From Candidatus Levyibacteriota bacterium (GTDB taxonomy: Bacteria; Patescibacteriota; Microgenomatia; Levybacterales; GWA1-39-11), in contig JAGORM010000002.1 of the NCBI GenBank assembly GCA_018062815.1, positions 11,211 through 75,210 of the forward strand: a DNA stretch of 64,000 nucleotides. Reading direction: 5' to 3'. Positions 1 to 59,559 of this stretch are shown one piece after another. Each line of letters starts with the position of its first letter. Position 1 is the first letter of the stretch. The notes beneath the pieces are model-generated. The model made no database searches. It was given only the letters and a program-made list of their open reading frames with translations, and was not told the origin of the DNA. The translations under genes were made by a program, and so were the position numbers.

Positions 1-2148
1 GTGCCTGAAAATCCAACAACTGTTTCAGCAAACCCTTCAGGTTATACTGCAACAAATAGTTTTGCATTCTCATGGAGCGGGGCAACTGATAGCGCTTCAA
101 CAGTTTATGACTACTGTTATAAAACATCCTTAAGTGGTAGTGAAACTTGTGGTGTAACTGATACATCCGTATCTGGTGTGACAGCGGGGGGGACGGGTGC
201 ATCTACGTTTTACGTACGATCAAGGGATCTTGCAGGGAATAAGGCCGCAACATATTCAAGCGTATCTTATTATTACAGCGCAACAGCGCCTAGTGCACCT
301 CAAGACCTTGAAGTATCACCTGAAACAAATACTGTAAATCAATTCTCATTCTCATGGAATCCTCCCTCAACATATTTTGGCTCACAATCATCCCTGCGTT
401 ATTATTACTCTATAAACGCGCTTCCTACTGCTCAAAATGTAAATGTGTTGGGGTTGTCTGTTACTAATCTTGCAACAGATGCATATGCTACCGTTCCGGG
501 TGCAAATGTAATGTATGTGGTTGCCAAAGATGAAGCAGGAAATATTGATTACAATAATTATGCATCTGTAACATTTACCGCTGATACATCAGCCCCGGGT
601 ATTCCAAAAAAAGTAGACATAGCAGACATTTCCGTTAAGACTTTATCCGCTTGGAAACTCGCGGTTTCCTGGGAGGCACCTGATGCCAGTGGTTCAGGAG
701 TATCAAGTTATAAAGTCTATAGCTCAACAACCACAGGTGCCAGTTGTACCACTGATTTTTCAAATTTCTCATACTTAGCATCAACAACCGGCCGTTCATA
801 TGTGGATACAGATATTACTCAAAATGATCATTATTACTGTGTAAAAGCTTGTGATTCCACTAACAATTGTTCTGCAGTTTCATCAACTGTTACTAAATAT
901 CCAACAGGTAAATATGAGGCAGCTGCAGAATTAACTGCAAGTCCTTCAGCTACCGTTAAGACAAAGTCGGCGATAATCACATGGGGTACAAGCAGAACAA
1001 GTAATTCTTTTGTAAAGTATGGTACTAGCTCAGGAGATTATGGGACAGAAGTTGGATCGTCAACTCAGGTTACGGCGCATTCTATAAGTTTACTTAATTT
1101 AGCACCTGGAACAACTTACTACTATAAAGTTCTCTGGACAGATGAAGATGGGAATATAGGCTCATCAACAGAGCAAAGCATTACTACTGAACCCGCACCA
1201 TTAGTAGGATCAGTTAAGGTTGCGAACATAAGTATAAACTCTGCAAATGTATCCTTTTCTGTGTCAAATGCGACAAGCGTTACAGTGCAATATGGACTTA
1301 CCACAAATTACGGAGCGTCAGATACAATTACAACTTCAAAGACAGAAACAACCCAGATTGTAGCACTTGAGAATCTTGAGGAGGGGACAGAGTATCATGT
1401 GCAAATTGTCGCAGAAGATGAGGAGGGAAATACATTTGCAGGAAATGATTATACTTTTGAAACCCTACCTGTTCCTAAGATTACGGCGTTTAAGTTACAA
1501 CAAGTGGCGGGTGAAGCAACTGCAACCTTGCGATTACTTTGGACATCTAACTCGTTAATATCAACAGTAGTAACTTATTACCCGGCAAATAATCCTGTGG
1601 CTACAAAAGATTCTATTAACTTAGTGTTGTCACGTAATCACCAAGTTATTTTAAATAATTTGCTGGACGATACGGATTATACGATTGTCATAAAAGGAAA
1701 AGATAGTGCGGGAAATGAGGCAGAGTATCCTCCTCAGGCTGTTAAAACAGCCGCAGATCTCCGTCCTCCTGGGATTGAAAATATGAATGTAGAGACAACT
1801 ATATTAGGGGTTGGTGACCAGGCAAAAGCACAGGTTGTTGCAACATGGGATACCGATGAGCCTGCCTCTACGCAAATAGAGTATGCGGAAGGAACAGGTA
1901 CTAGTTATAACTTAAGTACCCAAGAGGACACAAATAAGACCATGAATCACTCAGTTACAATTACGGGACTTTCTCCATCTAGAATTTACCATCTGCGTGC
2001 AGTGGGTAAAGATAAAGCAGCAAATGTAGGAAATTCATTTGACACAGTAATTGTTACTCCTAAGAGCACAAAGGATGCGCTAAGCTTAGTAATTGATAAC
2101 CTAGCAAAAACATTCGGATTCTTAAAGGGTGTTAACAGTGGGAAATAA
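1..2148 (+). CDS. Large cell-surface protein with tandem fibronectin-III / purple-acid-phosphatase-N-like beta-sandwich repeats (5' end truncated by window edge)
   Basis: Frame-1 ORF open from nt 1 to TAA 2146-2148. Repeated ~90-100 aa modules with FN3-like signatures (SAPSAPQDLEVSP..FSFSWNPP; TKSAIITWGTSRTSNSFVKYGTS..TTYYYKV; ANVSFSVSNATSVTVQYGLTTNYG..TEYHVQIVAED; QVVATWDTDEPASTQIEYAEG..RIYHLRAVGKD). Confidence 0.7.
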   Translation: MPENPTTVSANPSGYTATNSFAFSWSGATDSASTVYDYCYKTSLSGSETCGVTDTSVSGVTAGGTGASTFYVRSRDLAGNKAATYSSVSYYYSATAPSAPQDLEVSPETNTVNQFSFSWNPPSTYFGSQSSLRYYYSINALPTAQNVNVLGLSVTNLATDAYATVPGANVMYVVAKDEAGNIDYNNYASVTFTADTSAPGIPKKVDIADISVKTLSAWKLAVSWEAPDASGSGVSSYKVYSSTTTGASCTTDFSNFSYLASTTGRSYVDTDITQNDHYYCVKACDSTNNCSAVSSTVTKYPTGKYEAAAELTASPSATVKTKSAIITWGTSRTSNSFVKYGTSSGDYGTEVGSSTQVTAHSISLLNLAPGTTYYYKVLWTDEDGNIGSSTEQSITTEPAPLVGSVKVANISINSANVSFSVSNATSVTVQYGLTTNYGASDTITTSKTETTQIVALENLEEGTEYHVQIVAEDEEGNTFAGNDYTFETLPVPKITAFKLQQVAGEATATLRLLWTSNSLISTVVTYYPANNPVATKDSINLVLSRNHQVILNNLLDDTDYTIVIKGKDSAGNEAEYPPQAVKTAADLRPPGIENMNVETTILGVGDQAKAQVVATWDTDEPASTQIEYAEGTGTSYNLSTQEDTNKTMNHSVTITGLSPSRIYHLRAVGKDKAANVGNSFDTVIVTPKSTKDALSLVIDNLAKTFGFLKGVNSGK

Positions 2149-3093: not shown

Positions 3094-5283
3094 ATGAAAA
3101 ACATCCTTCCGATTTTTAAAAAAGTTTTATTAGTGATAAGCAAGCCTTCTTTTTGGGTGCATTTACCTAAGAACAGTATTATCTTTATAAAGAAAGCAAG
3201 TGTAACAAGTGTAATATTTGCAAGTTTTTTCCTTCTGCTTAATGTCTGCTTCGTAGAGGTGATATGTAAATATCTGGAATCACTTCCTGTTGTAGGAAGA
3301 ATATTTAAAAAAACAAATATGTTATGGGTAAAATCTTTTGGAAGATATATCCCGAGACTTGTAAGAGGGCTTGAGAAAATGAGGACATATGAAGTACAGC
3401 GTTCTTATCTTATTTTTCTCGCATTTGAAAACTTGCGTGTAAGAAAAAGCAGATCTCTTATCACAGTTGCGGGTATGTCATTTGGAGTAGGTGTAATTGT
3501 CCTGCTTTTATCTTTAGGATATGGAATAGAGCGTTTAGTTGTAAACAAGGTCGCAAGTCTTCAGGACTTACAGGTGGTTGATATTTCAACGGGAGGAAAT
3601 ACAGCAGTAAAATTAACCCAGGACGCAATGAGGAAGTTTCAGAAATTCGGAAAAGTGACAAATGCCATACCGTTTGTTTCTGTTGTCGGAAGAATAACCT
3701 TTAATAAAGCAACCACTGATGTTTTAGTATATTCCGCACCAAATGAATATTTTAAATTCATAAACGCGAAGATGGTGAAGGGAAAGCTTTTTTCAAATAA
3801 TAAAATTTCTTATGCTCCGCCTGATGGTGAAGTTGCAGGGGTATCAACCCAGTATGAAAAAGCAGAATTTGGGAGCAAAGTGAGTCCAAACACAGTTTTG
3901 TTTAATATAAACCCACAAGAAGCGGCAGTTGTTTGGGAGTCATGTAGTACGGGAGGGAAAATTGTAGGGTATACCGCAAGACTCGAAGGAGGGTATAAGG
4001 GGTATCAGTATTGGGGAAGTGAATATTATCCGCTTGAGGGTGACGCGCGGGCTGGGTATAGTAATACTACCCATGAATATTTAGGTAAATGGATAAAGGG
4101 TGTTGTGCCGTTGTATAACAAAAGCTCAGACGGAGCACTTAGACCAATTTTAGATGACCACGGAGTGCATAAATGGCAGGACGCATGTATTCAAATGAAA
4201 TATGTTCAGGTATTAGATGAGTATATTCTTCGTCAAGTTTTAGGTGCGTCAACAAAATCAGGTTCAGTTTTGGCGGCATCGGATTCAGCTTCCATTACGG
4301 CAGAAGCAGATATTGAAAGCTCACAAGATTCATCTTCTTCTGCTGAAATAGATCAAGTAGACTCTGCGGCATTTATTAGTTCATTTGATTCAAGCGTTGT
4401 TGGAACAAATTCTTCAGGAATAGAATTTGTAGATCTTGCATCTCAGCAGAAAGCAAAGAAAAAAGAAACTGAAACATTAAAGTTTAAGGGAGGGCATAGC
4501 GGTGAGGCTATTGTTTCAACTGGACTCCTTAATTTATTGGGTATTCCGGTTTCAAAAGCGTTAGACAGCACATTTAAATCATCTCTTATTATAGGAAAAA
4601 GTCAGATACCGGAATTATTAGGAAAAGCGCAGAGTGAGGAGAAAGATTACAAAATAGTTGGGGTAATTGATGACTTGGATACTCAATACTTTTATATTCC
4701 ATTATCTGACGTAAAGAATTTAGGTGTTACCAATTTCTCTCAAGCAAAGATTGTAATGTTACTTAAGCAGGAAATGGGGAAGTTCAGAAAACAGGTAGAA
4801 GATTTAGGCTTTAGAACTACAAGCACTGCTGATACCGTTAAGCAGATAGAATCATTATTTGGTAATTTAAGAATTGTCTTAGGTCTTTTGGGAATGGTTG
4901 CGCTAGGCGTTGCGTCACTTGGGATGTTTAATACACTAACCGTTTCCCTTCTTGAGCGTACTCGTGAAATCGGTGGAATGAAAACCATAGGTATGGTGAC
5001 TGATGAAGTTCAGGAGCTATTGCTTTCTGAAGCTATGATTATGGGTCTTTCAGGCGGAGTTGGAGGTCTATTGTTGGGGTTTGTTGCGGGCAAGGTGTTA
5101 TCTGGGGCAGTGAGCATTTTTGCAATAGCGGGTGGTCAAGGCTTTTTGGATCTTACATATGTTCCGCCGTTTCTTATACTTTTTATAATTGTTTCGTCAT
5201 TTTTTGTTGGCCTTATTACAGGATTGTATCCTGCAATGCGTGCTCGCAAGATTTCCGCTCTAAATGCCCTGCGGTATGAATGA
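3094..5283 (+). CDS. ABC transporter permease, FtsX/MacB family with large (~430 aa) extracytoplasmic domain
   Basis: ATG 3 nt after the ATPase stop. N-terminal TM (ITVAGMSFGVGVIVLLLSLGYGI), long extracellular domain with an acidic Ser-rich low-complexity segment, C-terminal FtsX-like 3-TM bundle (LRIVLGLLGMVALGVASLGMFN...GLYPAMRARKISALNALR). Confidence 0.8.
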   Translation: MKNILPIFKKVLLVISKPSFWVHLPKNSIIFIKKASVTSVIFASFFLLLNVCFVEVICKYLESLPVVGRIFKKTNMLWVKSFGRYIPRLVRGLEKMRTYEVQRSYLIFLAFENLRVRKSRSLITVAGMSFGVGVIVLLLSLGYGIERLVVNKVASLQDLQVVDISTGGNTAVKLTQDAMRKFQKFGKVTNAIPFVSVVGRITFNKATTDVLVYSAPNEYFKFINAKMVKGKLFSNNKISYAPPDGEVAGVSTQYEKAEFGSKVSPNTVLFNINPQEAAVVWESCSTGGKIVGYTARLEGGYKGYQYWGSEYYPLEGDARAGYSNTTHEYLGKWIKGVVPLYNKSSDGALRPILDDHGVHKWQDACIQMKYVQVLDEYILRQVLGASTKSGSVLAASDSASITAEADIESSQDSSSSAEIDQVDSAAFISSFDSSVVGTNSSGIEFVDLASQQKAKKKETETLKFKGGHSGEAIVSTGLLNLLGIPVSKALDSTFKSSLIIGKSQIPELLGKAQSEEKDYKIVGVIDDLDTQYFYIPLSDVKNLGVTNFSQAKIVMLLKQEMGKFRKQVEDLGFRTTSTADTVKQIESLFGNLRIVLGLLGMVALGVASLGMFNTLTVSLLERTREIGGMKTIGMVTDEVQELLLSEAMIMGLSGGVGGLLLGFVAGKVLSGAVSIFAIAGGQGFLDLTYVPPFLILFIIVSSFFVGLITGLYPAMRARKISALNALRYE

Positions 5284-5322
5284 TCTCTTGATGAGTTGGC
5301 ATAAATCATATACACTTTTTCT

Positions 5323-6057
5323 ATGCCTAAGAAAAGTCAAGATCAAGAAACACTTTCTTCAACATCCTTTACAAAAGAGTCGCTTGTTGACCTTAAAAAA
5401 GAAGGTAAAAACTATTTCCTTCACTGGTTTGATTATCTTGTAACTAACATAAGAAATAAGGTAATAAAGAGGCCAATTGAATATGTGGTTGTGTTTATTG
5501 TAAGTTTTTTTATTACAATATGCGTTTCAGCAATTATTCTGCTCCTAGTTTTTAATAAAATTGAAATGAGTCTTTCACTTCCTGCGATTCCTTTCTATAA
5601 TTTTGGACAGCTTCAGATAAGTAGGACAAATAGAGGAGATGCAAGATTTGACCCTATGGTTTTATTAAAGTTAATACAAAAAAATAATACAGAGTACTTA
5701 CTAATTGATGTACGTACCGCAAGGGAATATGAAAGCGGACATATTAAAACTGCTGTATCCATACCGTTTTATGGTACAGATTTTGTTTTAGATAATGGTG
5801 AGGTAAAAAATATAAGCGGGGAATTAAAAGAAAAATTTAATGTGCTGGCAAAAAACAAAAAAATTGTGATTCTCTACGGACAAACTTCATATTCCTCATA
5901 CGTTGAAAAAGTAGCACAACATCTTGACGCGAGCAGGGGGAAGGTAAAGGTATTAGGTGTAGGTTGGAATGAGTGGGCACACTTTAAGAATTTATGGATT
6001 TCTGAGGCGGATTGGAATGTTATAAATATACAAGACTTTATTCAAGTAAAAGAATAA
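5323..6057 (+). CDS. Membrane-anchored rhodanese-domain protein
   Basis: N-terminal TM (VVVFIVSFFITICVSAIILLLVF); rhodanese signature LIDVRTAREYESGHIKTAVSIPF. Confidence 0.65.
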   Translation: MPKKSQDQETLSSTSFTKESLVDLKKEGKNYFLHWFDYLVTNIRNKVIKRPIEYVVVFIVSFFITICVSAIILLLVFNKIEMSLSLPAIPFYNFGQLQISRTNRGDARFDPMVLLKLIQKNNTEYLLIDVRTAREYESGHIKTAVSIPFYGTDFVLDNGEVKNISGELKEKFNVLAKNKKIVILYGQTSYSSYVEKVAQHLDASRGKVKVLGVGWNEWAHFKNLWISEADWNVINIQDFIQVKE

Positions 6058-18993: not shown

Positions 18994-19180
18994 GATAAAA
19001 AATAACCCTTGAGTATCTTCACGGATTACTTTGATTTTTTACTGTAAACATATTTTACGTCAGAGATAAGTCTGTTACAGTGATCTATCTCACATCTGGG
19101 GATTTTTAGATGTACGGTTGATTTAAGTTGAGTACTGATTAAAAAAACTTGCTTAAGTTTATTAACTTTAATGAGAAGTG

Positions 19181-19798
19181 TTACTTTAGTAATTTTATCG
19201 ATGATAAGACTTTATTAACCTCGTTCTGATATCCGTTCTGTTTAGGGTCGCTCACAGCATAAGTAATTACTACTGCATAGTTAGACTTATCATCTTTTTG
19301 AAGAGCTAAATTTTTTGAAGTTCCAAGCCCTCTTAAAGCATAACTAAAACCTGGATATTCGTTTTGTATTATTGATTTTTTTGGCTCTACGACTTCTGAT
19401 GTTCCGTCTGCTGTGGATTCCTTTATGCGTGAGTTTACCCAATTTTCCAATGTCTCTCCCTGTAGGTCAATAGTTTCAAACACTATGAGGACACCATCAG
19501 ACATTTCACTTTGGGGTCTTTGAGTTACCCCTCTTTTATATATCCGAATATGCTTAATGTCTTGAGTGTCTAGTGTATAGTCATTAGGATAAAGAATGGA
19601 GAAAATACCCTTTTCATCTAAATAACTGCTTCCGCTAGCTCCCAAATCAATTTGAGATGGCTCGTTCGGGGGAGCAAGGGGAGAAGGTGTTGTGGTTTGT
19701 TGGGAAGTAGACGTTTTTTCTAGTATATTGGAGAAAATCAACCAACATGCAACTCCAATAAGTACTAGTGATAAAATGCCTAACGGTATCAGCTTCAT
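19181..19798 (-). CDS. Secreted/anchored small protein, paralog family member 1 (FSxxYPxxY...SSIKLLK)
   Basis: N-terminal signal-anchor MKLIPLGILSLVLIGVACWLIF (start set at second ATG; track start 19816). Shares motif and C-terminus with the genes at 20011, 20776 and 62628. Confidence 0.6.
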   Translation of the reverse strand: MKLIPLGILSLVLIGVACWLIFSNILEKTSTSQQTTTPSPLAPPNEPSQIDLGASGSSYLDEKGIFSILYPNDYTLDTQDIKHIRIYKRGVTQRPQSEMSDGVLIVFETIDLQGETLENWVNSRIKESTADGTSEVVEPKKSIIQNEYPGFSYALRGLGTSKNLALQKDDKSNYAVVITYAVSDPKQNGYQNEVNKVLSSIKLLK

Positions 19799-20010
19799 GT
19801 GTAGGTATTGTAGCAAACTAATATGAGAATGAGGTAAGAAATTATGTTAAGTGAGTTATGGAGGAGTATCGTTTAAATAGCTCAAAGCTTGTTTGTCTTA
19901 AGCATTAGAGTGAGAAATCTCGAAGATATTTGGTCTTTAACATACAAATATCCATAAAGATGAATAATGTTCGTAGTATATTTCAGAGATTTTTATAACC
20001 TAATGTTGAC

Positions 20011-20676
20011 TTAGTTTGTGAGTTTGAAGCTTGAAATAATTTCTGCAATGGTTTCTTTTGAGGCGTTATAGTCACTTAAAGAAGCTTGCATGCTACCTGA
20101 TGGATAGTCAGTCCCATATAGAATGTTATACTCACCTACTGCAAAATCAACATACGCGCCTCTGTTATTTAAAATAATTTCAGTTTCGTCAATATCTTTG
20201 CCATCAACATTAACTGTTATTTTATTAGTTATAGTACTATTTTCTCCACCAAACCCATATGGAAATTGACCTTTAGAGATAGTAATAGAAACAGTTTTGT
20301 TAGGATTCATTAATTGTACTGTTTCTAAGAATTCGCTTGGTCCGGTTTGTATCCAATCAGCGGGGTACATAAAGGTGTAATTTGCCCCGTTATATGTTTT
20401 CCAATTATTTTTTTGATTTGTAGAAATTGTAGGATTAGGCGTTGGGGTCGTAACAGTAGATGTTGGTTGGAGAGTAGGAGAGGGGGTGATTACTTGTTGG
20501 GGTTGAGTATTATTTTTTTGTGTACCTAAAAAATACGCTCCACCACCTACGATAAGCAATAAGACTATTACGCCTAAAATGATAATAAATTTACCCCTAT
20601 GACTGTTATCAGGGTGTTGTAGGGTTTGATTTGGTGTTTCGGCAGGATTTGTTGGCTGATTAGTAGTATTTTCCAT
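20011..20676 (-). CDS. Secreted/anchored small protein, paralog family member 2
   Basis: TM anchor (FIIILGVIVLLLIVGGGAYFLG), Pro/Thr linker, NWKTYNGANYTFMYPADW motif, C-terminus IISSFKLTN. Confidence 0.65.
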   Translation of the reverse strand: MENTTNQPTNPAETPNQTLQHPDNSHRGKFIIILGVIVLLLIVGGGAYFLGTQKNNTQPQQVITPSPTLQPTSTVTTPTPNPTISTNQKNNWKTYNGANYTFMYPADWIQTGPSEFLETVQLMNPNKTVSITISKGQFPYGFGGENSTITNKITVNVDGKDIDETEIILNNRGAYVDFAVGEYNILYGTDYPSGSMQASLSDYNASKETIAEIISSFKLTN

Positions 20677-20775
20677 ATGAGGTTATTGTTTCAAAATAGA
20701 CAGAGGAAAGCAAGAATCAGATAATATTTCATCCATGATTTGCGGGAGCTAGCAAACTTTGTAGGAACACATGAC

Positions 20776-21363
20776 TTATTTAGCAAACTTGAAGGTTGAG
20801 AGAAGATTATTAAAAGTACTGACGGCATTTTTATTTTTAGTTTCTGTTTCTTCCCAATCAGCATAAATGAGACTGAATTCGTAGTATAACCCGTCTTTTG
20901 AAAATCTTACAACTTCAATAGCCGATTGTATGCCACTAGGAATTGACCATCTTGTTGCTTGTGACCCGCTTACTGTGTATGGATATACTTTTATAGTCTC
21001 TGAGTTACCTAAGTTGATTGGATCATTGGTATAATCTTGTTCAAGGATACTTAAATATATACGCGGCAGAGTAGATTCGCCCTTTTTGACAGGACTATAT
21101 AAAATGACTCCACGACTTTTAGATTTTTCGCTTAACCTCCAATCCTCCGGATAAAAAAAACTAAACCCTAGTTTTTGGTCCATAAATAAGTTTTTTTTAG
21201 GTTGTTTGAATGTAGATGTGAGTTTAAGAGTAGGCGTAGTTTTATTTGAAAAACCCGTTACTTTCACATCTTTTTTTTGTTCTGATGGTTTAATCAAAAA
21301 AGCAATAAACAGTATCAGGATTAGGATGAAGCACGCAATAATTATTTTGTAATAAGTCTTCAT
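20776..21363 (-). CDS. Secreted/anchored small protein, paralog family member 3
   Basis: TM anchor (IIIACFILILILFIAFLI), LGFSFFYPEDW motif, C-terminus LLSTFKFAK. Confidence 0.65.
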   Translation of the reverse strand: MKTYYKIIIACFILILILFIAFLIKPSEQKKDVKVTGFSNKTTPTLKLTSTFKQPKKNLFMDQKLGFSFFYPEDWRLSEKSKSRGVILYSPVKKGESTLPRIYLSILEQDYTNDPINLGNSETIKVYPYTVSGSQATRWSIPSGIQSAIEVVRFSKDGLYYEFSLIYADWEETETKNKNAVSTFNNLLSTFKFAK

Positions 21364-21472
21364 GTTAACTGTGAGAAAAATTTTAACATGGGCAGTTTAA
21401 CACAAACAAGGCTAATAGTAAACTATAAGATTATTTTTTTTGGGGGCAAGCATACATTGTAAGAACACACTG

Positions 21473-22324
21473 TTATGCTTTAATACTTCTTTTATGAAGT
21501 GCATTTTTTATACGTAGATTAAGTTCTTGTGTAAGAGTGGGATTGTCAAAATCACGGTCTACAATTGTATCAATTCCATCTGTGCCAACTTCCAGTACAA
21601 GTAATTTTCCGTCCTTAGATTTAATAAGGTCAACAACCCCAAAAGCGCTAAAGAGTTGAACTGCTTCTAATGCTTTTCTGGAAACATCCATAGCTTCCTC
21701 TGTTGGCTGCTCAAGCGGAAAATATCTTGCTCCTACAGCGTGTGCGACTAAATCTTTGGGTTTTACCCCATCTGGGAGCTTGCGAACATTCCATGCAAAA
21801 ATCTCTCCGTCAACACAGTAAGTTCTATAAACCTCTGGATTTTCATGTCTTACGAATTCCTGGACAATAAACGGTTTTTGCCAATCAAGGTGAGTGAAAT
21901 ACCCCTCAGCATCTAGCTTAACCATTTTCTCACTGTCCACTATGGTGTGTCCTCGCGTTGCCAAGCCTGTTGGGTACTTCAATATCCACTCTTTTTCTGA
22001 ATGTTGTTTTAAAAAATCTTCAGTTTGGGGAGTATCTTTTACCAGATGCGTTTCAGGGGTAGGCACACCATTTTTATTAAATAAATGCGCTTGGATTCGC
22101 TTGTCCCCAGCTGCAATTATCCCAAAATAAGGGATAAATAGTTCATATTTTTTTATTTTTTTGAAACTTTGACGCCCGTCCTCTAAGTAAAGGGGGTAGT
22201 GAACTGCGTTTGCATCAAAAGTCTCAGAAACAGAACCATTCCAATTTCTTGCATTCTCATTTGCTAGTTGTCCGAACCAGGTTTCTCCAACCTTTCCCTG
22301 ATTAACTATTTTTATTTCTTTCAT
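21473..22324 (-). CDS. ATP-grasp family ligase (RimK/GshB-like fold)
   Basis: ATP-grasp signatures: DKRIQAHLFNKNGVPTPET, WILKYPTGLATRGHTIV, FIVQEFVRHENPEVYRTYCVDGEIFAWNVRK, LLVLEVGTDG. Confidence 0.65.
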   Translation of the reverse strand: MKEIKIVNQGKVGETWFGQLANENARNWNGSVSETFDANAVHYPLYLEDGRQSFKKIKKYELFIPYFGIIAAGDKRIQAHLFNKNGVPTPETHLVKDTPQTEDFLKQHSEKEWILKYPTGLATRGHTIVDSEKMVKLDAEGYFTHLDWQKPFIVQEFVRHENPEVYRTYCVDGEIFAWNVRKLPDGVKPKDLVAHAVGARYFPLEQPTEEAMDVSRKALEAVQLFSAFGVVDLIKSKDGKLLVLEVGTDGIDTIVDRDFDNPTLTQELNLRIKNALHKRSIKA

Positions 22325-22437
22325 GAATTAGAGGAGATTATAGGAGGTTCTAGCCAAAATTCAGAAGTTAGATTCGAGTGCTAAAGCTAAACGAGGTTAA
22401 AAGCGATGCAGGCGCTGGTAAACTTCGTTGGAACGTA

Positions 22438-22959
22438 TTATTTTAATAAACCTCTGTTGTTTTCGTAAAAAACCCTCGTATTTTGTTCTATTTGATATTG
22501 TTCAGGTGTGAAAAGTTTAGCTTCGGCAATTTTGTCTGCATTAAAAACAAAATTCATATGCACTGCTTGATAATCAGGGTGGCTCCAGGGATTTTTGCCC
22601 ATTCTTGCTGTCCTAATTCCCCAAGGAAACTCCTTTGGCATTGGCCATTTTTTCCTAATAAGTTTAAGTGTCCTGAAAACATCAGAGCTGTTAACAACCA
22701 ACTGAAGTGCATATAGATCAAGTATTGGTATAGACTTACGCAATGGATTTTCTATCTTTTCAAGTAGCCTATCAGTAGATTTAATTCTCGCGTCGGATTG
22801 CAACACCTCAATTTCGCTCGAAGTTAGATGTGCTAGCATTTCGCTGTGAAGACCTTTTATCACTGCTAATTCGTGAGAGAGATCTCTGTCATTAGCATAG
22901 GCTGCCGTTACCTCGGGTTGCTCTAGTAAAGTCTGAGGACCTGAATATGTTTCTTTCAT
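22438..22959 (-). CDS. RelA/SpoT-domain (GTP pyrophosphokinase-like) small nucleotidyltransferase
   Basis: Matches synthetase-domain landmarks: ARIKSTDRLLEKI (cf. GRVKSxxSxxEKL), IPILDLYALQLVV (cf. DLxGxRII), SSDVFRTLKLIRKKW (cf. DDCYxxLxxI), GKNPWSHPDYQAVHMNFVF (cf. PKxNGYQSLHTxV). The canonical G of DxxG is replaced. Confidence 0.5.
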   Translation of the reverse strand: MKETYSGPQTLLEQPEVTAAYANDRDLSHELAVIKGLHSEMLAHLTSSEIEVLQSDARIKSTDRLLEKIENPLRKSIPILDLYALQLVVNSSDVFRTLKLIRKKWPMPKEFPWGIRTARMGKNPWSHPDYQAVHMNFVFNADKIAEAKLFTPEQYQIEQNTRVFYENNRGLLK

Positions 22960-23009
22960 GCGGTCATTCTATCAAAAAAGAGACCGTTAATCAAACTATA
23001 GGATTTTTG

Positions 23010-23080
23010 CAGGGCCGCAGAGATTCGAACTCTGAAAAGCGGTTTTGGAGACCGCTGTGATACCATTTCACCACAGCCCT
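23010..23080 (-). tRNA. tRNA-Trp (CCA)
   Basis: Minus-strand reading AGGGCTG-TG-GTGA-AATGGTA-TCAC-A-GCGGT-CTCCAAA-ACCGC-TTTTC-CAGAG-TTCGAAT-CTCTG-CGGCCCT-G. Anticodon CCA; acceptor has one G-U pair; no encoded 3' CCA. Confidence 0.75.
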
Positions 23081-23250
23081 TCGATTAGCTCAGGGTAAAC
23101 CCTTCTGTAAGCTCAGGGTAAACCCTTCCGTAAAGCTTCCCTCGGAATACTCGGGACAGGCAGGGTAATCCCTAAGGTAGTCTTATTTTACCCGTTCGAT
23201 AAGCTCAGGGCAAGCCCGTACATTCAAGCTCAGGGCGGGTACAGATTAGT
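23081..23250. repeat. Cluster of 4-5 imperfect copies of AAGCTCAGGG(T/C)AA(A/G)CCC(T) arranged as a duplicated ~50-nt unit, in the divergent spacer between tRNA-Trp and the gene at 23337
   Basis: Copies at ~23086, 23110, 23160 (degenerate, GGCAGGGTAATCCCT), 23200 and 23225. Each contains a short AGGG-TAA(A)-CCCT dyad. Confidence 0.6.
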
Positions 23251-23336
23251 TAAAAACAAATAGAGAAGTTTGACCCCTATAGTATTTTAAGGTATAATTG
23301 TGTTTCTATTTGTTAAGATCAAATAGTGCATAATTT

Positions 23337-24104
23337 ATGGCATTAAATCACGAATCGCATGAAGTTTTTGAACAATACGGTATTTCTGAAGATACACTTT
23401 ATCCAAGGGTAAAGTTGTTAACATCGTCTATAAACTCAACTAAAATTGATCCAATAATGATTGCCATAAATCTTCAAAAAAAAGTTTATGGGGAGACTCC
23501 TGACATAAATATAAGCAAAATTAATCGTTTTACTACAGCAATTTCTAGGCGCGGAATTGATGAAGATGTTCTTGTGGAGACATTTGGGAATAAAGAGGCA
23601 GGAGCGGAGTATGTGAAAAGTAAACTACCATCAGGATTTATGGTGGAAGTGTTTACAGGAGGAGCTTGGAATATAAAAGTTGCAGCTAAAACAGATAAAG
23701 ATTCAGAAAGAAAATTTAATCAGTTGCAGCATTTTGACTCGACAGGTGAAGAAGGTATAAATCAATTGAGTGAGACATGGCCTGTTCTTACAATAACAAA
23801 TGACGGAAAACTTGAATTGTCTTCAAAGGATGCATTTACTATGCGTATAAGTAAATCAGAAGCATCAGTATCAGAACCAAAATGGGAAAAAAAGAGTATA
23901 TTTTTCTCCGCTTATGACATTTATCCCTCTCTTGTTCCTAATGACAGTATAGAAGTTGAAGTCGGAGTACTTATAAGAAATTTTGATGTTCAAGAGATGA
24001 TAGCAAGATTTGGAGAAGGCATTAGACAAAGACAGTTAACACTAGAAGACTTAAGCAGCTACGTTAAGCCTTATATATTACTACATGAACAAAGCAAGGT
24101 ATAA
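23337..24104 (+). CDS. Hypothetical protein (255 aa)
   Basis: ORF immediately upstream of era (stop/start overlap region); no motifs recognised. Confidence 0.5.
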   Translation: MALNHESHEVFEQYGISEDTLYPRVKLLTSSINSTKIDPIMIAINLQKKVYGETPDINISKINRFTTAISRRGIDEDVLVETFGNKEAGAEYVKSKLPSGFMVEVFTGGAWNIKVAAKTDKDSERKFNQLQHFDSTGEEGINQLSETWPVLTITNDGKLELSSKDAFTMRISKSEASVSEPKWEKKSIFFSAYDIYPSLVPNDSIEVEVGVLIRNFDVQEMIARFGEGIRQRQLTLEDLSSYVKPYILLHEQSKV

Positions 24105-52785: not shown

Positions 52786-52858
52786 GACTCCGTAGCTCAA
52801 TGGATTGAGCAGTCCCGTCCTAAGGGAAAGATTGCGAGTTCGACTCTCGCCGGGGTCA
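52786..52858 (+). tRNA. tRNA-Arg (CCT)
   Basis: GACTCCG-TA-GCTC-AATGGATT-GAGC-A-GTCCC-GTCCTAA-GGGAA-AGATT-GCGAG-TTCGACT-CTCGC-CGGGGTC-A. One G-U in the acceptor and a G27:A43 mismatch; the 3' trailer reads CACCA, so no directly encoded CCA. TGGTAGAAT -10-like box at 52743-52751. Confidence 0.6.
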
Positions 52859-52924
52859 CACCACTGGTTAGTAATAATTTTGAATAGTAGTAGTACTTCT
52901 AATAATTTTGTATAGTAATTAGTA

Positions 52925-54214
52925 ATGATTGATGCTCCCGAACTTCAAAAACCAACAAAATTAAAACAAAACATTCTAAGAGTACGCGAGGCAAAAGATG
53001 TGGCAAGAGTATTTGAAACTAGAATAGTTGGTCGAACAAGTAATGAATTTAGAGAGATATGTTATAGTGCTGATCTTGTCCTTGGAGGATTGGAAAACGA
53101 ATACGAGCATTTTATAACACAAAAATTCACTGAGCTTGAATCTTATCTAGATACTTCTTACGATAACTTACGCGAACATCACAATGAAGGATTCCGTAAG
53201 TTCCTACTCCAACAGTATCGTACTTATAAAAAAGAACAACCAAGCAGTGTTGATTCTTTAAAAGAAGAAGAAAGTATAAAGGATCTTGCTATCGGATATA
53301 CATTTGACTACATAAGAACACTAACACTTGGTAAGAGAATGGGGATAAGCTCAAAAAACGCACTTATGTTAGCAGAAGTTTCTCATTGGAATACTCCTAA
53401 TGTGCTTATTTCCCTTGCAAAAAAGTTTCCAGATGCAGATCCAAATGTTATTTTTAATGCTGCGGCGCACCGCCCAGCACATCCAGAAGATTTTCTAAGA
53501 GAAGTTCTTGAAGCAATCCCAAGACTTCAAGAGAAGTTTCCTGATATGGATCTCGGAATTATTAAAGGGGCTGCAACTAATTATCGATCAGCTCCCGAAC
53601 AGTATCTCCAAGGTGTGAATGATGCAATCCCAAGACTTCAAGAGAAGTTTCCTGATATAGATCTTGGAACAATTAAAAAAGCGGCTAGTGACTACTCCTC
53701 TGACCCAGAAGAATTTATCCAAGGCGTCATTACCACAGTTTCCAAATTGAGGGAAAAGTTTCCTGAAGCTGATGTTCGCTTGCTTAAAACTGCCGCAAAC
53801 ATGCACCCTCTCGATCCTGAAGGATTTGTTAATAAAGTAACTGAAAGGGTGCAGAGCCTACAAGCAAGCTTTCCAGAGATTGACTTGAGAATCATTAAAA
53901 CTGCTGCAATAAGTTACGGATCGAACCCCGAAGTATTTATCAGGAAAGTCTTGTCTGATATTCCAGACCTGCAATTAAAATTTCCTGATATCCCCCTTTC
54001 TGTTATTAAAGCTGTCGTGATTAGTCACACATCAGATTCCGAAGGTTTCATCAGAAATGTGTCTGAAAAAGCTCCTGGGTTGCAAAAAGAGTTTCCTGAT
54101 TTATCAGCAAGCGTGGTTTATCGTGCTTTAATTGGCTATCGGGATCCGCAGACCTTTCTAAGAGAAGTTCAAAATAGAATTCAAGCCTCATTAAAGCAGC
54201 GGAATCAGGCGTGA
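52925..54214 (+). CDS. Tandem-repeat protein: ~150-aa N-terminal domain plus 7 copies of a ~37-aa helical repeat (consensus xIPxLQEKFPDxDLxxIKxAAxxYxSxPExFIxxV)
   Basis: Repeat units visible in the translation. At DNA level, ATCCCAAGACTTCAAGAGAAGTTTCCTGATAT occurs twice (53515-53546 and 53625-53656). Confidence 0.65.
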   Translation: MIDAPELQKPTKLKQNILRVREAKDVARVFETRIVGRTSNEFREICYSADLVLGGLENEYEHFITQKFTELESYLDTSYDNLREHHNEGFRKFLLQQYRTYKKEQPSSVDSLKEEESIKDLAIGYTFDYIRTLTLGKRMGISSKNALMLAEVSHWNTPNVLISLAKKFPDADPNVIFNAAAHRPAHPEDFLREVLEAIPRLQEKFPDMDLGIIKGAATNYRSAPEQYLQGVNDAIPRLQEKFPDIDLGTIKKAASDYSSDPEEFIQGVITTVSKLREKFPEADVRLLKTAANMHPLDPEGFVNKVTERVQSLQASFPEIDLRIIKTAAISYGSNPEVFIRKVLSDIPDLQLKFPDIPLSVIKAVVISHTSDSEGFIRNVSEKAPGLQKEFPDLSASVVYRALIGYRDPQTFLREVQNRIQASLKQRNQA

Positions 54215-56546: not shown

Positions 56547-57266
56547 ATGTCTAAGAAGCAAATTATTAAATTCCTCGTGCTGCGTACTTTAGGAAATTTT
56601 CTGGTTTTGTTTATGATCTTTGGATTTATTGCAACTTTTGGCCCTGCTCTTTTTTATGAAGTAAGATTCAGGATTGAAGAGGCAAGAGGAGTAAAGTATG
56701 AACTGCCAAATACTGAACCTTCCGAGCTTGCAAAAATAATTCAGAAAAGAAAAGCATTACAACAGCCAACCCAAAATTTACTTGGCTCAGTGCTTTCAGA
56801 TAAAAAAGTACAAATTTTAACACCGGTTGATACTAGTTTTTCTGTTGTAATTCCAAAAATTGGCGCAAATGAAAGGGTAACCCCCAATGTAAATCCTGCG
56901 GATGGAGGAGAGTACTTAGAAGTTTTAAAACACACAGTTGCTCATGCTCGCGGGACATCCCTTCCAGGATTAAACGGTACGACTTATCTTTTTGCGCATT
57001 CTGCTGATAATTTTTGGGATGTAGGGCGCTATAATGCAGTCTTTTACTTATTAAAAGACTTGCAGATAGGAGATGATATTTCCGTTTTCTTCAATGATAA
57101 ACGTTACAATTACACAGTATATGATAAAAAAATTGTAGATCCTAGTGAGGTGGGGTATTTGGCTGCAAATATTGGGCAAGGAGAACGCCTTATATTGCAA
57201 ACCTGTTGGCCGCCGGGCACAACGTGGAAGCGGTTACTTATCTTTGCTAAGCCTAAAAACACTTAA
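56547..57266 (+). CDS. Sortase-family transpeptidase
   Basis: N-terminal TM; active-site His region YLFAHSADNFW; catalytic Cys in the TLxTC-type motif LILQTCWPPGT. Confidence 0.7.
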   Translation: MSKKQIIKFLVLRTLGNFLVLFMIFGFIATFGPALFYEVRFRIEEARGVKYELPNTEPSELAKIIQKRKALQQPTQNLLGSVLSDKKVQILTPVDTSFSVVIPKIGANERVTPNVNPADGGEYLEVLKHTVAHARGTSLPGLNGTTYLFAHSADNFWDVGRYNAVFYLLKDLQIGDDISVFFNDKRYNYTVYDKKIVDPSEVGYLAANIGQGERLILQTCWPPGTTWKRLLIFAKPKNT

Positions 57267-57336
57267 TATTAACTGGATTAGGAAAATTCCTACCTCTTGT
57301 TATGACAAATGGTTTGATAACGAGTATAATTATTTT

Positions 57337-59559
57337 ATGAACAATTCAGGAGGAAATTCGCAGGATAAATTAGTTCATCTAATGGTTAGAAATCCTAAAG
57401 ATGATGAGACTCCAATTCAGGCTGCGACACAAATTTTTTCAGGAATTCTTCCTCATTCATTCATCCCGCTTTGGAAACGTATGTATGTTCATCCCTCAGT
57501 CTTTGCTTTTGAATTGTTTCTGATAAATCAGTCGGCATCTTTTTATGTTACCGCACCGCAAGAAAAAGAAACAGTTGTCTCAAGTCTTATTTCATCATCT
57601 TTTCCAAAATCTAATATTGCTAAAACTACTGACCCCATGGTGGAAGTTTTGAAGGCGAAGCATATTGTATATGGACAGATGGTTTTAGATTCCTATTCTT
57701 ATCTGCCTATAAAAACATATGCTGACTTTGAAGACGTAGATCCACTATCTGCGCTTTTAGGTTTTTTAGGCAAGCAAGATGAGAATACTCAAATGGCGGT
57801 TCAAATTTTAGTAACTCCTGCGCTTTTTGATTGGCAACATAAGGCAGTAGACATGGCTGGTCATATGGTTTTAGATGCGCCCGGAGCACCAAATGATCCA
57901 AATGAAAAAGCTCGTTATTCGCAAAATCCCCAAAAACTGCTCATGATGCAAAAAGCGTCTTTTGTAGGCGGTAAAGCAGTGGTACGTTTGGTGGTGGGCA
58001 GTGACAGCGCTGAGAAGGCAAAACACGAGCTGCATAACCTAGCGGGTATTTTTGGTACTTTTTCACAGGGGGAGGGTAATCAATTTGTTTTAAAACGCCC
58101 TAGAATTAGAAAGAAAGTGTTGCTCGCGAGGATAAAAGACAGAAAAACTGGAATTTTTGAACGTCGGAATCAAGTATTAAACGCACAGGAGTTGGCGACT
58201 TTATGGCATCCTCCTGGATTTCTTCTTTCAGGAATAAGAAATGTAGCATGGGGGAAGACACTTCTTGGGGAGCCTCCGGAGAATCTACCCGTTATAACTG
58301 GGATGACTGAAGATGAAAAACAAAAAGTAAACTTTTTTGCAAAGACAGAATATAAAAACAAAGATACAATATTCGGAATAAAAGATGCTGACAGGAGAAA
58401 ACACATCTATGCAATTGGTAAAACCGGTGCGGGTAAATCTACACTAATTGCAAATATGGCTATTGATGATATTCGGAAGGGAAGAGGTGTTGGGATAATA
58501 GATCCTCATGGTGACTTGTCAGAAACAATTTTGGATTATATTCCAAAAAGACGTTTGAATGATGTTGTATATCTGGAACCGTTTGATGTAGAGAGGCCCT
58601 TCTCATTAAATGTGCTTGAAGTCCACAATAGACAGCATAAAGATTTGATTGCATCAGGAATTGTATCTATTTTCCATAAGATTTATGGAGATAGCTGGGG
58701 TCCTCGATTGGAATATATACTGAGGAATGTTATCTTAACACTTTTGGATATAGAGGAGGGAACACTTATAGATGCATTGAGGTTATTGTCAGATAATTCA
58801 TTTAGGGCAAGTGTAGTTCCCCGTCTGAGTGATCCTGTTCTAAGAAATTTTTGGGTAGGTGAATTTGATAAAATGTCTGATAAATTAAGGGCAGAGGCAG
58901 TGTCTCCTATTCAGAATAAGATTGGGCAATTTGTCTCAAGCAGCATGATAAGAAATATCATTGGGAACAAAACGTCAAGCATTAATCTTTCAGAAATTAT
59001 GGATGAGGGGAAAATACTCATTCTAAATTTATCTCAAGGGAAATTGGGAGAAGACAATGCAGCTTTACTGGGCGCTATGATAATTACACAAATCCAACTT
59101 GCCGCAATGAATAGGTCATATGTTAAGGAAGAAGATAGACGGGATTTTTTCCTCTATGTTGATGAGTTTCAAAATTTTGCCACAGAGTCTTTTGCAAAAA
59201 TTTTATCAGAGGCAAGGAAATATAGACTTTCATTAACTCTTGCAAACCAATATGGTGACCAATTGGAAGAGGAAATACAGAGGGCAATTTTTGGTAACGC
59301 AGGAAGTATCATATCATTTGTAGTAGGAGCAAGAGATGCATATATGTTAACTCGGGAATTTGCCGAAGTATATTCTGAAAATGATTTAGTATCCCTTGGG
59401 AAATTTGAAACAGTAGTGAAGTTGTCTATTGACGGAATGACATCCGGGCCATTTCCGGCAGTGACATTACCGCTACCAAGTTTGAAGAATGATAATAGAG
59501 AGGATATTATAAGAAATAGCCGTGAACGTTATGGTAGAAAGCCTTCAAAAAACTTTTAA
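57337..59559 (+). CDS. HerA/VirB4-superfamily (DUF87/AAA_10-like) P-loop ATPase
   Basis: ~360-aa N-terminal domain, Walker A AIGKTGAGKSTL followed by GIIDPHGD (HerA/DUF87-like DPHGEY signature), Walker B FLYVDEFQNF, then ARKYRLSLTLANQ (RK/Q sensor region typical of the FtsK-HerA-VirB4 clade). Start set at MNNSGGNS (ATG 57337); the track start 57145 overlaps the sortase gene. Confidence 0.7.
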   Translation: MNNSGGNSQDKLVHLMVRNPKDDETPIQAATQIFSGILPHSFIPLWKRMYVHPSVFAFELFLINQSASFYVTAPQEKETVVSSLISSSFPKSNIAKTTDPMVEVLKAKHIVYGQMVLDSYSYLPIKTYADFEDVDPLSALLGFLGKQDENTQMAVQILVTPALFDWQHKAVDMAGHMVLDAPGAPNDPNEKARYSQNPQKLLMMQKASFVGGKAVVRLVVGSDSAEKAKHELHNLAGIFGTFSQGEGNQFVLKRPRIRKKVLLARIKDRKTGIFERRNQVLNAQELATLWHPPGFLLSGIRNVAWGKTLLGEPPENLPVITGMTEDEKQKVNFFAKTEYKNKDTIFGIKDADRRKHIYAIGKTGAGKSTLIANMAIDDIRKGRGVGIIDPHGDLSETILDYIPKRRLNDVVYLEPFDVERPFSLNVLEVHNRQHKDLIASGIVSIFHKIYGDSWGPRLEYILRNVILTLLDIEEGTLIDALRLLSDNSFRASVVPRLSDPVLRNFWVGEFDKMSDKLRAEAVSPIQNKIGQFVSSSMIRNIIGNKTSSINLSEIMDEGKILILNLSQGKLGEDNAALLGAMIITQIQLAAMNRSYVKEEDRRDFFLYVDEFQNFATESFAKILSEARKYRLSLTLANQYGDQLEEEIQRAIFGNAGSIISFVVGARDAYMLTREFAEVYSENDLVSLGKFETVVKLSIDGMTSGPFPAVTLPLPSLKNDNREDIIRNSRERYGRKPSKNF

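Follow-up and report, generated by a model that had tools for sequence, protein, structure and literature searches.

A divergent RelA/SpoT-type synthetase gene and an ATP-grasp ligase gene behind tRNA-Trp in a Levybacterial genome: probable cassette neighbours that do not appear to form a functional pair

Do a RelA/SpoT-like gene and an ATP-grasp ligase gene that follow one another directly behind a tRNA form a functional pair, and what is the significance of the tRNA beside them? This question is raised by a 64,000-nt stretch of the genome of a Candidatus Levyibacteriota bacterium (GenBank assembly GCA_018062815.1, contig JAGORM010000002.1, positions 11,211 to 75,210), referred to here as the window, in whose coordinates all positions are given unless another locus is named. 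The locus lies on the minus strand and comprises tRNA-Trp (anticodon CCA; 23009–23080, found by ARAGORN and matched by Rfam RF00005 with 63 bits at 23010–23080), a gene for a 173-aa RelA/SpoT-like (RSH-like) protein (22438–22959) whose ATG is 49 nt past the tRNA end, and a gene for a 283-aa ATP-grasp protein (21473–22324) that starts 113 nt beyond the RSH gene. A preliminary description, made by a model from the letters of the sequence, had treated the two genes as a compact unit, possibly a toxin-immunity pair or a small ligation pathway, and had drawn attention to its position right after a tRNA. The tRNA and both open reading frames (ORFs) were found where that description had placed them, all on the minus strand, and both proteins are annotated as hypothetical in the public records of the source genome.

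Related loci were compared with the window and are labelled with L-numbers (L001, L007, L008 and so on); identity figures for relatives refer to the RSH or ATP-grasp protein of the window unless stated otherwise. The closest syntenic relative was L008, in which the flanking genes were 82–98% identical (Era 97%, a PD40 protein 89%) and the ATP-grasp protein 84% identical. At this locus the ATP-grasp gene came 83 nt behind tRNA-Trp, and no RSH gene was present. A three-way DNA alignment showed that the window carries a clean extra block of 601 bp relative to L008 (22407–23007, minus strand), with both flanks aligning base for base; the block contains the RSH gene as its single gene, its limits are marked by the boundary sequences described below, and the leader of the ATP-grasp gene (22325–22406, minus strand) is collinear with the spacer between tRNA and ATP-grasp gene in L008 and hence represents sequence that flanked the tRNA originally. 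One junction of the block falls in the 113-nt interval between the RSH and ATP-grasp genes.

Relatives of the RSH gene had no ATP-grasp neighbour in L001/L017, L007, L018, L020, L022, L024, L096 or L097. In L007 (74% identical) the order was tRNA-Trp, RSH, a 176-aa gene and a methyltransferase gene; in L001/L017 (78–79%) it was tRNA-Trp, Lactamase_B_3 and APH-like genes, RSH and three unknown genes. The RSH-like gene of L020 lay behind tRNA-Val, that of L022 beside a NUDIX gene and before a 455-aa gene, that of L024 in a row of threonine-biosynthesis genes, and those of L018, L096 and L097 among unknown genes, such that the eight or nine RSH contexts examined had no neighbour in common. The 84% identical ATP-grasp relative in L009–L011 stood behind tRNA-Trp together with a 293-aa gene and a DUF6364 gene, and ATP-grasp relatives of other phyla (L012, L014, L015) were found among unrelated neighbours with no RSH gene.

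These results indicate that the RSH and ATP-grasp genes are neighbours in a variable stretch anchored at the tRNA-Trp 3' end, and that they do not appear to work together; they are adjacent because both sit in that stretch. We consider it probable that a mobile RSH cassette, with an accessory small alarmone synthetase (SAS) as its cargo, lies beside an unrelated ATP-grasp ligase without any partnership between them. The compact functional or toxin-immunity unit was not borne out, given that L008 keeps the ATP-grasp gene without RSH and that the RSH contexts lack ATP-grasp. The emphasis on the tRNA was justified, with the tRNA 3' end read as the cassette site; as an integration site, it makes adjacency to the tRNA no evidence of a functional link between enzyme and tRNA. 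The preliminary description had also made its proposal depend on the two genes being adjacent in relatives and on the RSH gene being something other than a ubiquitous housekeeping SAS. They were never adjacent in the relatives, and the RSH gene proved to be sporadic and accessory.

The ends of the 601-bp block support its description as a cassette. The core GCCCTGCA (23008–23015, minus strand) spans the final bases of the acceptor stem, the discriminator base and the next 2 nt, and its CCTGCA recurs at the far end of the cassette as a direct repeat (23008–23013 and 22407–22412). The cassette begins directly after the tRNA sequence ...GGCCCTGCA and ends ...CCAGCGCCTGCA, and the empty site in L008 reads ...GGCCCTGCA immediately followed by TCGCTTTTAACC; window and L008 are accordingly an occupied and an empty allele at a tRNA 3' end, the occupied one with a flanking direct repeat. 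A circular form of the cassette would be expected to carry the junction ...TTTACCAGCGCCTGCA joined to AAAATCCTATAGTTTG.

At the left end (22966–23001, minus strand) a box search identified CCTATAGTTTG, and a promoter scan placed a promoter-like site (TTGATT, 17 nt, TG-n-TAGAAT) across it; this box was also present upstream of the RSH-like genes in L001, L007, L020, L022 and L097. In its general form, CCTATAGTT(T/G)G with the palindromic core CTATAG, the box lay over the -35 region about 40–50 nt before the RSH ATG, was kept down to about 35% protein identity and also marked the left end of a few unrelated cassettes (window 22992–23001 and 21419–21428, minus strand; L001 ~5958; L007 ~574; L020 ~2375; L022 ~743; L097 ~680; L009 ~301; L091 ~128). 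Its role might be that of an operator or of a second arm of the attachment site.

The right end is formed by a motif of ~35 nt, ATAATACGTTCCAACGAAGTTTACCAGCGCCTGCA (22407–22441, minus strand), which begins within the RSH stop codon and, in a comparison with tRNA 3' halves, resembled the T-arm and the acceptor 3' strand of tRNA-Trp. An nhmmer model was built from 10 such ends. Across the whole 64-kb window its two best matches were both in this array: one directly after RSH (E = 3.2e-5) and one, a degenerate copy (20742–20771; E = 0.65 over the whole window, 0.031 over the region), immediately after a 195-aa ORF (20776–21363), the next gene but one. The 195-aa gene is absent from L008, and this segment (20742–21363, minus strand) is probably a third cassette of the array. 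The model found three further copies, with E = 2e-6 to 1e-3 and each straight after a stop codon, one of which lay directly past the 43% identical RSH-like gene in L022. The upstream junction of that gene reads ...CCCTGCA followed by ATAACCTATAG..., and both junctions of the L022 cassette end ...CCCTGCA. Past the ATP-grasp stop codon a possible degenerate motif, CAGTGTGTTCTTACAATGTATGCTTGCCCCCA (21441–21472, minus strand), was seen by eye only, as a resemblance in GTGTTCTTACAATGTATGCTTGCCCCCA followed by the TTATAGTTTA box (21419–21428, minus strand; box search); nhmmer did not detect the motif after the ATP-grasp gene in the window, and the counterpart in L008/L009 was weak (E = 6.2). The ATP-grasp gene may plausibly be an older cassette of this array too. 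A sequence in L018, TATAGTTT, was set aside; it overlaps the stop codon of the upstream gene and is probably coincidental.

The same cassette occurred in several arrangements. Behind the anchor in the window the order was tRNA, RSH, ATP-grasp, and the RSH cassette was found in three others: in L007, in L001/L017, and in L022, where a NUDIX cassette, RSH and a 455-aa gene followed one another with no tRNA. Other cargo at the tRNA-Trp site included the 293-aa and DUF6364 genes of L009, a DUF7736 gene in L091 and, in L084, RpiB, cupin plus cation efflux, and cytidine deaminase genes. Three right-end motifs were present in L001/L017 (after Lactamase_B_3 plus APH, after RSH and after the three-gene block), three in L007, two in L009, two or three in L084 and one in L091, and the core (G)CC(C)TGCA marked both the tRNA end and each of the cassette ends in the window, L001, L007, L009, L022, L084 and L091. 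Between the window and L001 the RSH proteins were 79% identical and the Era proteins 61% identical over the 155 residues that L001 covers; conservation of RSH beyond that of Era fits horizontal exchange of the cassette.

Searches of larger collections gave few additional loci. The exact tRNA-Trp 3' half of the window type had 0 matches in JGI metagenomes; a degenerate version matched 24 loci, mostly from other phyla with secE after the tRNA, and none of these 24 carried an RSH or ATP-grasp gene, while L084 and L091 did show arrays. A 16-mer of the right-end motif gave 46 single matches in viral contigs, which equals the chance expectation for a collection of that size. The post-tRNA sequences of L074 and L094 resembled the start of the third cassette of L001 over a match (37 nt at 86% identity) whose shortness gives it little weight. 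Relatives of the RSH-like protein were not found in phage and plasmid collections, and a narrow RSH alignment retrieved no locus from viral contigs and a single locus from genomes, belonging to the same organism as L001.

Several further observations concern the loci that carry these arrays. In L020 (2293–2416) a 36% identical RSH-like gene starts 48 nt past tRNA-Val(CAC), a spacing close to the 49 nt behind tRNA-Trp in the window, with the same upstream box and no right-end motif, and a ~30-nt stretch upstream of the tRNA-Val (AATAAGCAAAGCTTGAT...) is repeated past the RSH-like gene. L017 (CAZEEU010000004.1, a GTDB representative) is labelled 'uncultured Gammaproteobacteria bacterium'; it is 99.7% identical to L001, which resembles genomes of the candidate phyla radiation (CPR), and the label is probably wrong. 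Just upstream of tRNA-Trp in the window (23081–23260, minus strand) are repeat units of ~23 nt (TTTACCCTGAGC...CGAAGGG), detected by Tandem Repeats Finder on 23087–23133. Such tandem units (GGGTTTACCCTGAGC...CGAA) each end like the tRNA 5' start and form a longer array in L008 (5605–5851); in L001 (3830–4120 and 6538–6586) there are several partial 5' tRNA copies instead, and one CCCTGAGC unit interrupts the right end of its RSH cassette. These sequences may be scars left by recombination 5' of the tRNA, or else a small repeat that is mobile.

As for how such cassettes would move, a site-specific recombinase encoded elsewhere would act on the tRNA-like end of the cassette and the 3' end of the tRNA. 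Each newcomer would be inserted beside the tRNA and displace older cassettes outward, on the same principle as in tRNA-targeting islands (PMC4383910) and in stacked elements with partial tRNA repeats (bioRxiv 10.1101/2020.12.28.424599). No recombinase domain was detected in the 30 scanned ORFs of the window or in the gene tables of the array-bearing loci. A 255-aa gene divergent from the tRNA (23337–24104, plus strand) was considered as an integrase and rejected, as it had no domain hit and no homologue in the compared part of L001. This gene evolves fast, with 64% identity to L008 vs 97% for the neighbouring Era.

The array shares features with two kinds of known mobile system. Among tRNA-associated elements, CIMEs are integrase-less, att-flanked cis-mobilizable elements. 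Islands that target tRNAs integrate at the tRNA 3' end (PMC4383910), and stacked elements with partial tRNA repeats have been described in which the newer ones are next to the tRNA (PMC4383910; bioRxiv 10.1101/2020.12.28.424599). With these islands (Islander-type and tycheposon arrays) and with CIMEs the units described here share the tRNA 3' end as site, a displaced tRNA-like copy and stacking. They differ from tRNA-targeting islands in being tiny (0.4–2.5 kb, one to three genes) and in never carrying an integrase, the window cassette having its 173-aa gene and no other conserved ORF; moreover, exact identity with the tRNA extends over 6–8 nt rather than about 40 nt, and the end motif is not a copy of tRNA sequence but is shared from one cassette to the next. 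Like integron cassettes, they form an array of small, mostly single-gene units with miscellaneous accessory cargo, and they have a conserved recombination-type end site that starts at the stop codon and a short core in common with the primary site. Unlike in integrons, there is no intI by the primary site, which here is a tRNA 3' end, the end motif of about 35 nt has no attC-like hairpin, and some cassettes have their own promoter. A more far-reaching proposal, which we put forward tentatively and with more doubt than conviction, is that these arrays represent an integron-like form of gene capture in Levybacteria and related CPR bacteria that is unlike the known kinds. The tRNA-Trp 3' end would be its primary site, stacked cassettes of 0.4–2.5 kb, some self-promoted, would end in a ~35-nt tRNA mimic, the recombinase would be encoded elsewhere, and the antitoxin-less, CPR-specific RSH gene would be a recurrent cargo exchanged between lineages.

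The identity of that cargo was addressed at the level of sequence family, fold and catalytic residues. On the single 173-aa sequence, Pfam RelA_SpoT (PF04607) scored 21.1 bits (E = 4e-4), below the gathering score of 27, and phmmer found no match among PDB sequences; close relatives of the single sequence amounted to just 4 clusters in an index of 5.8 billion proteins. An exhaustive HMMER profile search seeded with those four cluster sequences (cut-off E <= 1e-3) yielded 66 family representatives, and a word-index search with a 63-sequence profile returned only 7 proteins. PF04607 matched 51 of the 63 aligned family members, with a best E of 6.8e-9, and the close homologues P0127 and P0128 had precomputed PF04607 matches. 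Searched against PDB chains, the family profile matched a GTP pyrophosphokinase (9s6k, 5e-6), RelSeq (1vj7, 5e-5), and RelP and RelQ chains, over an overall range of E = 5e-6 to 2.5e-4. The RelA/SpoT assignment therefore needs the family-level profile, because the single sequence falls below the Pfam threshold. An AlphaFold2 (AF2) model had a mean predicted confidence (pLDDT) of 95.7, and its best 34 Foldseek matches were all RSH synthetase domains, in agreement with a synthetase (nucleotidyltransferase-type) fold. The 173 residues make up one domain that ends in the last helix of this fold, with neither a hydrolase domain nor a C-terminal extension. Every family member with an organism name came from a CPR genome (Levybacteria, Roizmanbacteria or Parcubacteria), and no long Rel enzyme was found among the 30 window ORFs scanned. 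The ratio of nonsynonymous to synonymous substitution rates (dN/dS = 0.08–0.12) shows strong purifying selection on the RSH gene. Taken together, family profile and predicted fold identify the protein as a genuine but divergent stand-alone, synthetase-only RSH protein.

The motifs of the protein are ARIKS (R58, K60), DLYALQ (D81) and PDYQAVH (Y130, H134), and its catalytic residues align onto the RelSeq motifs. Most of these positions are conserved among the 63 family members: R58 and K60 in 61 each, K68 in 59, D81 in 62, Y130 in 56, H134 in 45, E146 in 62 and R162 in 58. Three motif positions are altered in the subclade of the window: Ala replaces G84, Gln replaces R86 and Lys replaces Q148. 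Alanine in place of the DxxG glycine is also found in RelSeq (DLIAIR), and the real deviation of this subclade is R86 to Q and not the lost glycine. Against this background the RelA/SpoT-like and stand-alone character proposed by the preliminary description was confirmed, the former by the match of the family profile to Rel, RelP and RelQ together with the predicted fold, and the latter by the single domain without hydrolase or C-terminal extension. It had suggested a Pfam search and a structure prediction for 22438–22959; the Pfam score of the protein by itself did not reach threshold, and the family profile and the predicted fold supported an RSH protein. Counterparts of the motifs it named are present, and the lost glycine that it pointed out is not unusual, given the DLIAIR of RelSeq.

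The protein is probably an active minimal pyrophosphokinase, which would move the beta,gamma-pyrophosphate of ATP onto an acceptor 3'-OH. With its site intact, Rel, RelQ and RelP as its closest structures and no antitoxin in any context examined, it is best read as an accessory SAS, and we lean, cautiously, towards (p)ppGpp or (pp)pApp as its product. A purine nucleotide is the likeliest acceptor, from which an alarmone of the (p)ppGpp or (pp)pApp type would result. The gene would have a promoter of its own and no antitoxin dedicated to it. RelQ and RelP (B. subtilis YjbM/YwaC, S. aureus RelP) and the synthetase domain of long Rel have the same motif order (RxKxxxxxxxK, DxxGxR, YxxxH, ExQ), and RelQ and RelP are likewise single domains without a hydrolase. 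Identity to RelQ, RelP and Rel is only 12–20%, and the window protein lies under the Pfam gathering score; compared with RelQ and RelP, its family has a specific WPxPxxFPWG insert, its subclade has the R86 to Q and Q148 to K changes, the named members of the family are all from CPR, and the gene rides a mobile cassette.

Some other members of the family are longer. The L024 member (5001–6017), from a Parcubacteria genome, has 338 aa with an N-terminal extension of ~120 aa. Its gene is flanked by those for aspartate-semialdehyde dehydrogenase and threonine synthase, a setting that hints that some of the family may act in metabolism or regulation. Further members have N-terminal extensions of 77–184 aa (one with a helix-turn-helix, one with a GNAT domain) or a C-terminal extension of ~96 aa. 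In L022 a NUDIX hydrolase gene (158–688, minus strand) is divergent from the RSH-like gene (787–1323, plus strand) and belongs to the neighbouring cassette, a pairing seen once. NUDIX enzymes can degrade alarmones.

The second protein of the locus was confirmed as an ATP-grasp enzyme, as the preliminary description had it. Pfam RimK (PF08443) scored 28.6 bits, above its gathering score of 21, and ATP-grasp_3 (PF02655) scored 23.2 bits, equal to its cut-off of 23.2. An alignment-based AF2 model (pLDDT 93.8) had the three-domain ATP-grasp fold and matched ArgX, LysX, RimK, DcsG and Ddl with template-modelling (TM) scores of about 0.6–0.74 (0.66–0.74 for ArgX, LysX and RimK). The best NCBIfam match, the RimK family (TIGR00768), reached 50.5 bits, far under its cut-off of 143.4, and because of this shortfall the substrate cannot be inferred. 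A sequence search of PDB chains with the family profile found no match. At least 158 homologues were retrieved, the two closest 84% and 54% identical and the others 37–48% identical, from several phyla including Pedosphaera and Armatimonadota. E-x-N is the usual metal motif of the RimK-type family, and LEVGTDG stands where it would be expected. By domain match and predicted fold, the protein is a RimK/LysX-type carboxylate-amine ligase of an uncharacterised subfamily found in several phyla. It has the same three-domain fold as RimK, LysX and ArgX (TM about 0.7) and a Pfam RimK score above the gathering score, and it differs from them in its NCBIfam score far below the RimK cut-off, in the lack of a PDB sequence match and in the LEVGTDG motif. 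No LysW, RpsF or other conserved partner gene was found near its relatives in L012, L014 and L015. The homologues in L014 (3019–4000) and L015 (3311–4000) are preceded by 0.7–1 kb without a called gene or tRNA.

Several findings weigh against the view of an autonomous, mobile SAS cassette. Past the ATP-grasp gene the right-end motif is degenerate and escaped statistical detection, and the family members of L018, L020, L024, L096 and L097 lack it. The movement mechanism is inferred, with no recombinase found in window or array loci; identity with the tRNA is short (6–8 nt), and deletion between short repeats could yield single empty-site comparisons. The promoter and terminator scan found no terminator-like site between the RSH and ATP-grasp genes, so that in this genome transcription started at the cassette promoter could run on into ATP-grasp. 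As to the cargo, the structural preference for Rel/RelQ over toxSAS is small, and the Arg of DxxGxR is replaced in the subclade of the window, though K148 appears instead in 9 of 10 such cases.

Of the alternatives, the one that survives best, though we consider it unlikely, is that the RSH-like protein is a lone toxin: a toxSAS-like tRNA 3'-CCA pyrophosphokinase or (pp)pApp toxin, restrained transcriptionally and acting as defence or addiction cargo that stabilises the array. The gene is mobile, sporadic and self-promoted, the palindromic CTATAG box at its promoter could be an operator, and the fold resembles CapRel, Tas1 and SaSAS. As with toxSAS toxins (FaRel, FaRel2, PhRel, PhRel2) and fused CapRel, it is an accessory, horizontally spread gene. 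toxSAS modules, however, consist of a conserved, often overlapping bicistronic operon with a cognate antitoxin gene (PMC7229694), and the RSH gene of the window has no conserved adjacent antitoxin; a search of the cassette for a second, antisense or overlapping conserved ORF that could encode a hidden one found none, and there is no room for a second gene. Nor does the single 173-aa domain carry the fused C-terminal pseudo-zinc-finger antitoxin domain of CapRel or any other autoinhibitory domain. PADLOC gave no hit on the window protein, and the PDC-S33 matches that it gave in a few distant family members were weak (E about 3e-3) and covered the generic RSH domain only. The closest structures are the housekeeping Rel, RelQ and RelP, and the relative in L024 sits within the threonine-biosynthesis gene row.

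It is improbable that no mobile cassette exists, with tRNA, RSH and ATP-grasp genes in their ancestral order, relatives having lost or rearranged them through short-repeat deletion, and the 3' motif serving as a transcript-end or processing signal. The brevity of the tRNA-end identity (6–8 nt), the missing recombinase and the start of the right-end motif at the stop codon, as a 3'-end signal might have it, are all compatible with this explanation. However, the same ~600-bp unit with both ends occurs in first or second place behind tRNA-Trp and, in L022, without a tRNA; L009 has different cargo at the identical site; and from lineage to lineage RSH has diverged less than Era. The motif also does not behave as a terminator, for which a scan gave no support, and within the window it is confined to the array. 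Six motifs folded as single-stranded DNA gave no consistent structure (z-scores -1.7 to +1.1), which likewise did not support an attC-like hairpin.

We give a very low probability to the RSH-like protein being a catalytically dead pseudoenzyme or nucleotide-binding regulator, which the R86 to Q change in DxxGxR, the Q148 to K change in ExQ and the Pfam score below threshold might suggest. The Mg-binding Asp, the catalytic Glu, the R/K/K triphosphate binders and the acceptor-stacking Tyr are retained, and purifying selection is strong. Of the 10 sequences with K148, 9 lack R86, compared with 1 of 46 sequences that have R86, and the exchange of R86/Q148 for Q86/K148 looks like a compensated swap that relocates a positive charge. 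A toxSAS-type toxin with the ATP-grasp protein as antitoxin or immunity partner, or a two-step nucleotide or peptide ligation pathway, is largely refuted by the co-occurrence data and has next to no probability left. The shared direction of the two genes and the lack of a terminator-like site between them speak for it. Against it, the pair occurs in this genome only, the closest relative has ATP-grasp without RSH, eight or nine RSH contexts lack ATP-grasp and three ATP-grasp contexts lack RSH. The genes also lie 113 nt apart with a cassette junction in between, and the defining trait of toxSAS modules is a conserved bicistronic operon, often with overlapping genes (PMC7229694).

The remainder of the window looks like ordinary CPR chromosome (Era, RNase HII, ribosomal protein L1, TruB, arginyl-tRNA synthetase, MreC and a penicillin-binding protein). 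Another variable stretch adjoins the array and reaches from the ATP-grasp gene to a conserved 246-aa gene. Here the window (18994–21472) and L008 (6856–9414) have differing sets of small genes, encoding 195, 221 and 211 aa in the window and 240, 247 and 221 aa in L008. The hydrophobic starts of the three window proteins suggest that they are secreted or membrane proteins. A 429-aa ORF (52925–54214, plus strand), 66 nt past tRNA-Arg(CCT) (52786–52859), scored 59 bits to a eukaryote-type model of CUE, a ubiquitin-binding domain, with no single stretch above threshold. An 804-aa protein (57145–59559, plus strand) has TrwB/VirD4-type coupling-protein and HerA-like ATPase signatures, and its gene adjoins those of MreC and the penicillin-binding protein.

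Had the two genes proved to be a toxin-immunity pair, the ATP-grasp protein would have founded a new class of antitoxins, and the gene neighbourhoods remove that prospect. What they leave is a divergent, minimal RelA/SpoT-type family, all of whose named members are from CPR, and which bears on the question of whether, and in what way, these reduced, host-dependent bacteria employ alarmone signalling. The locus also gives evidence of a shuffling of single genes, in the form of tiny cassettes, at the end of a tRNA in CPR genomes, whose mobile elements and routes of gene flux are little known. Provided that the cassette system is real, its right-end motif and core would be a signature with which CPR metagenomes could be searched for accessory genes and for the recombinase that moves them.

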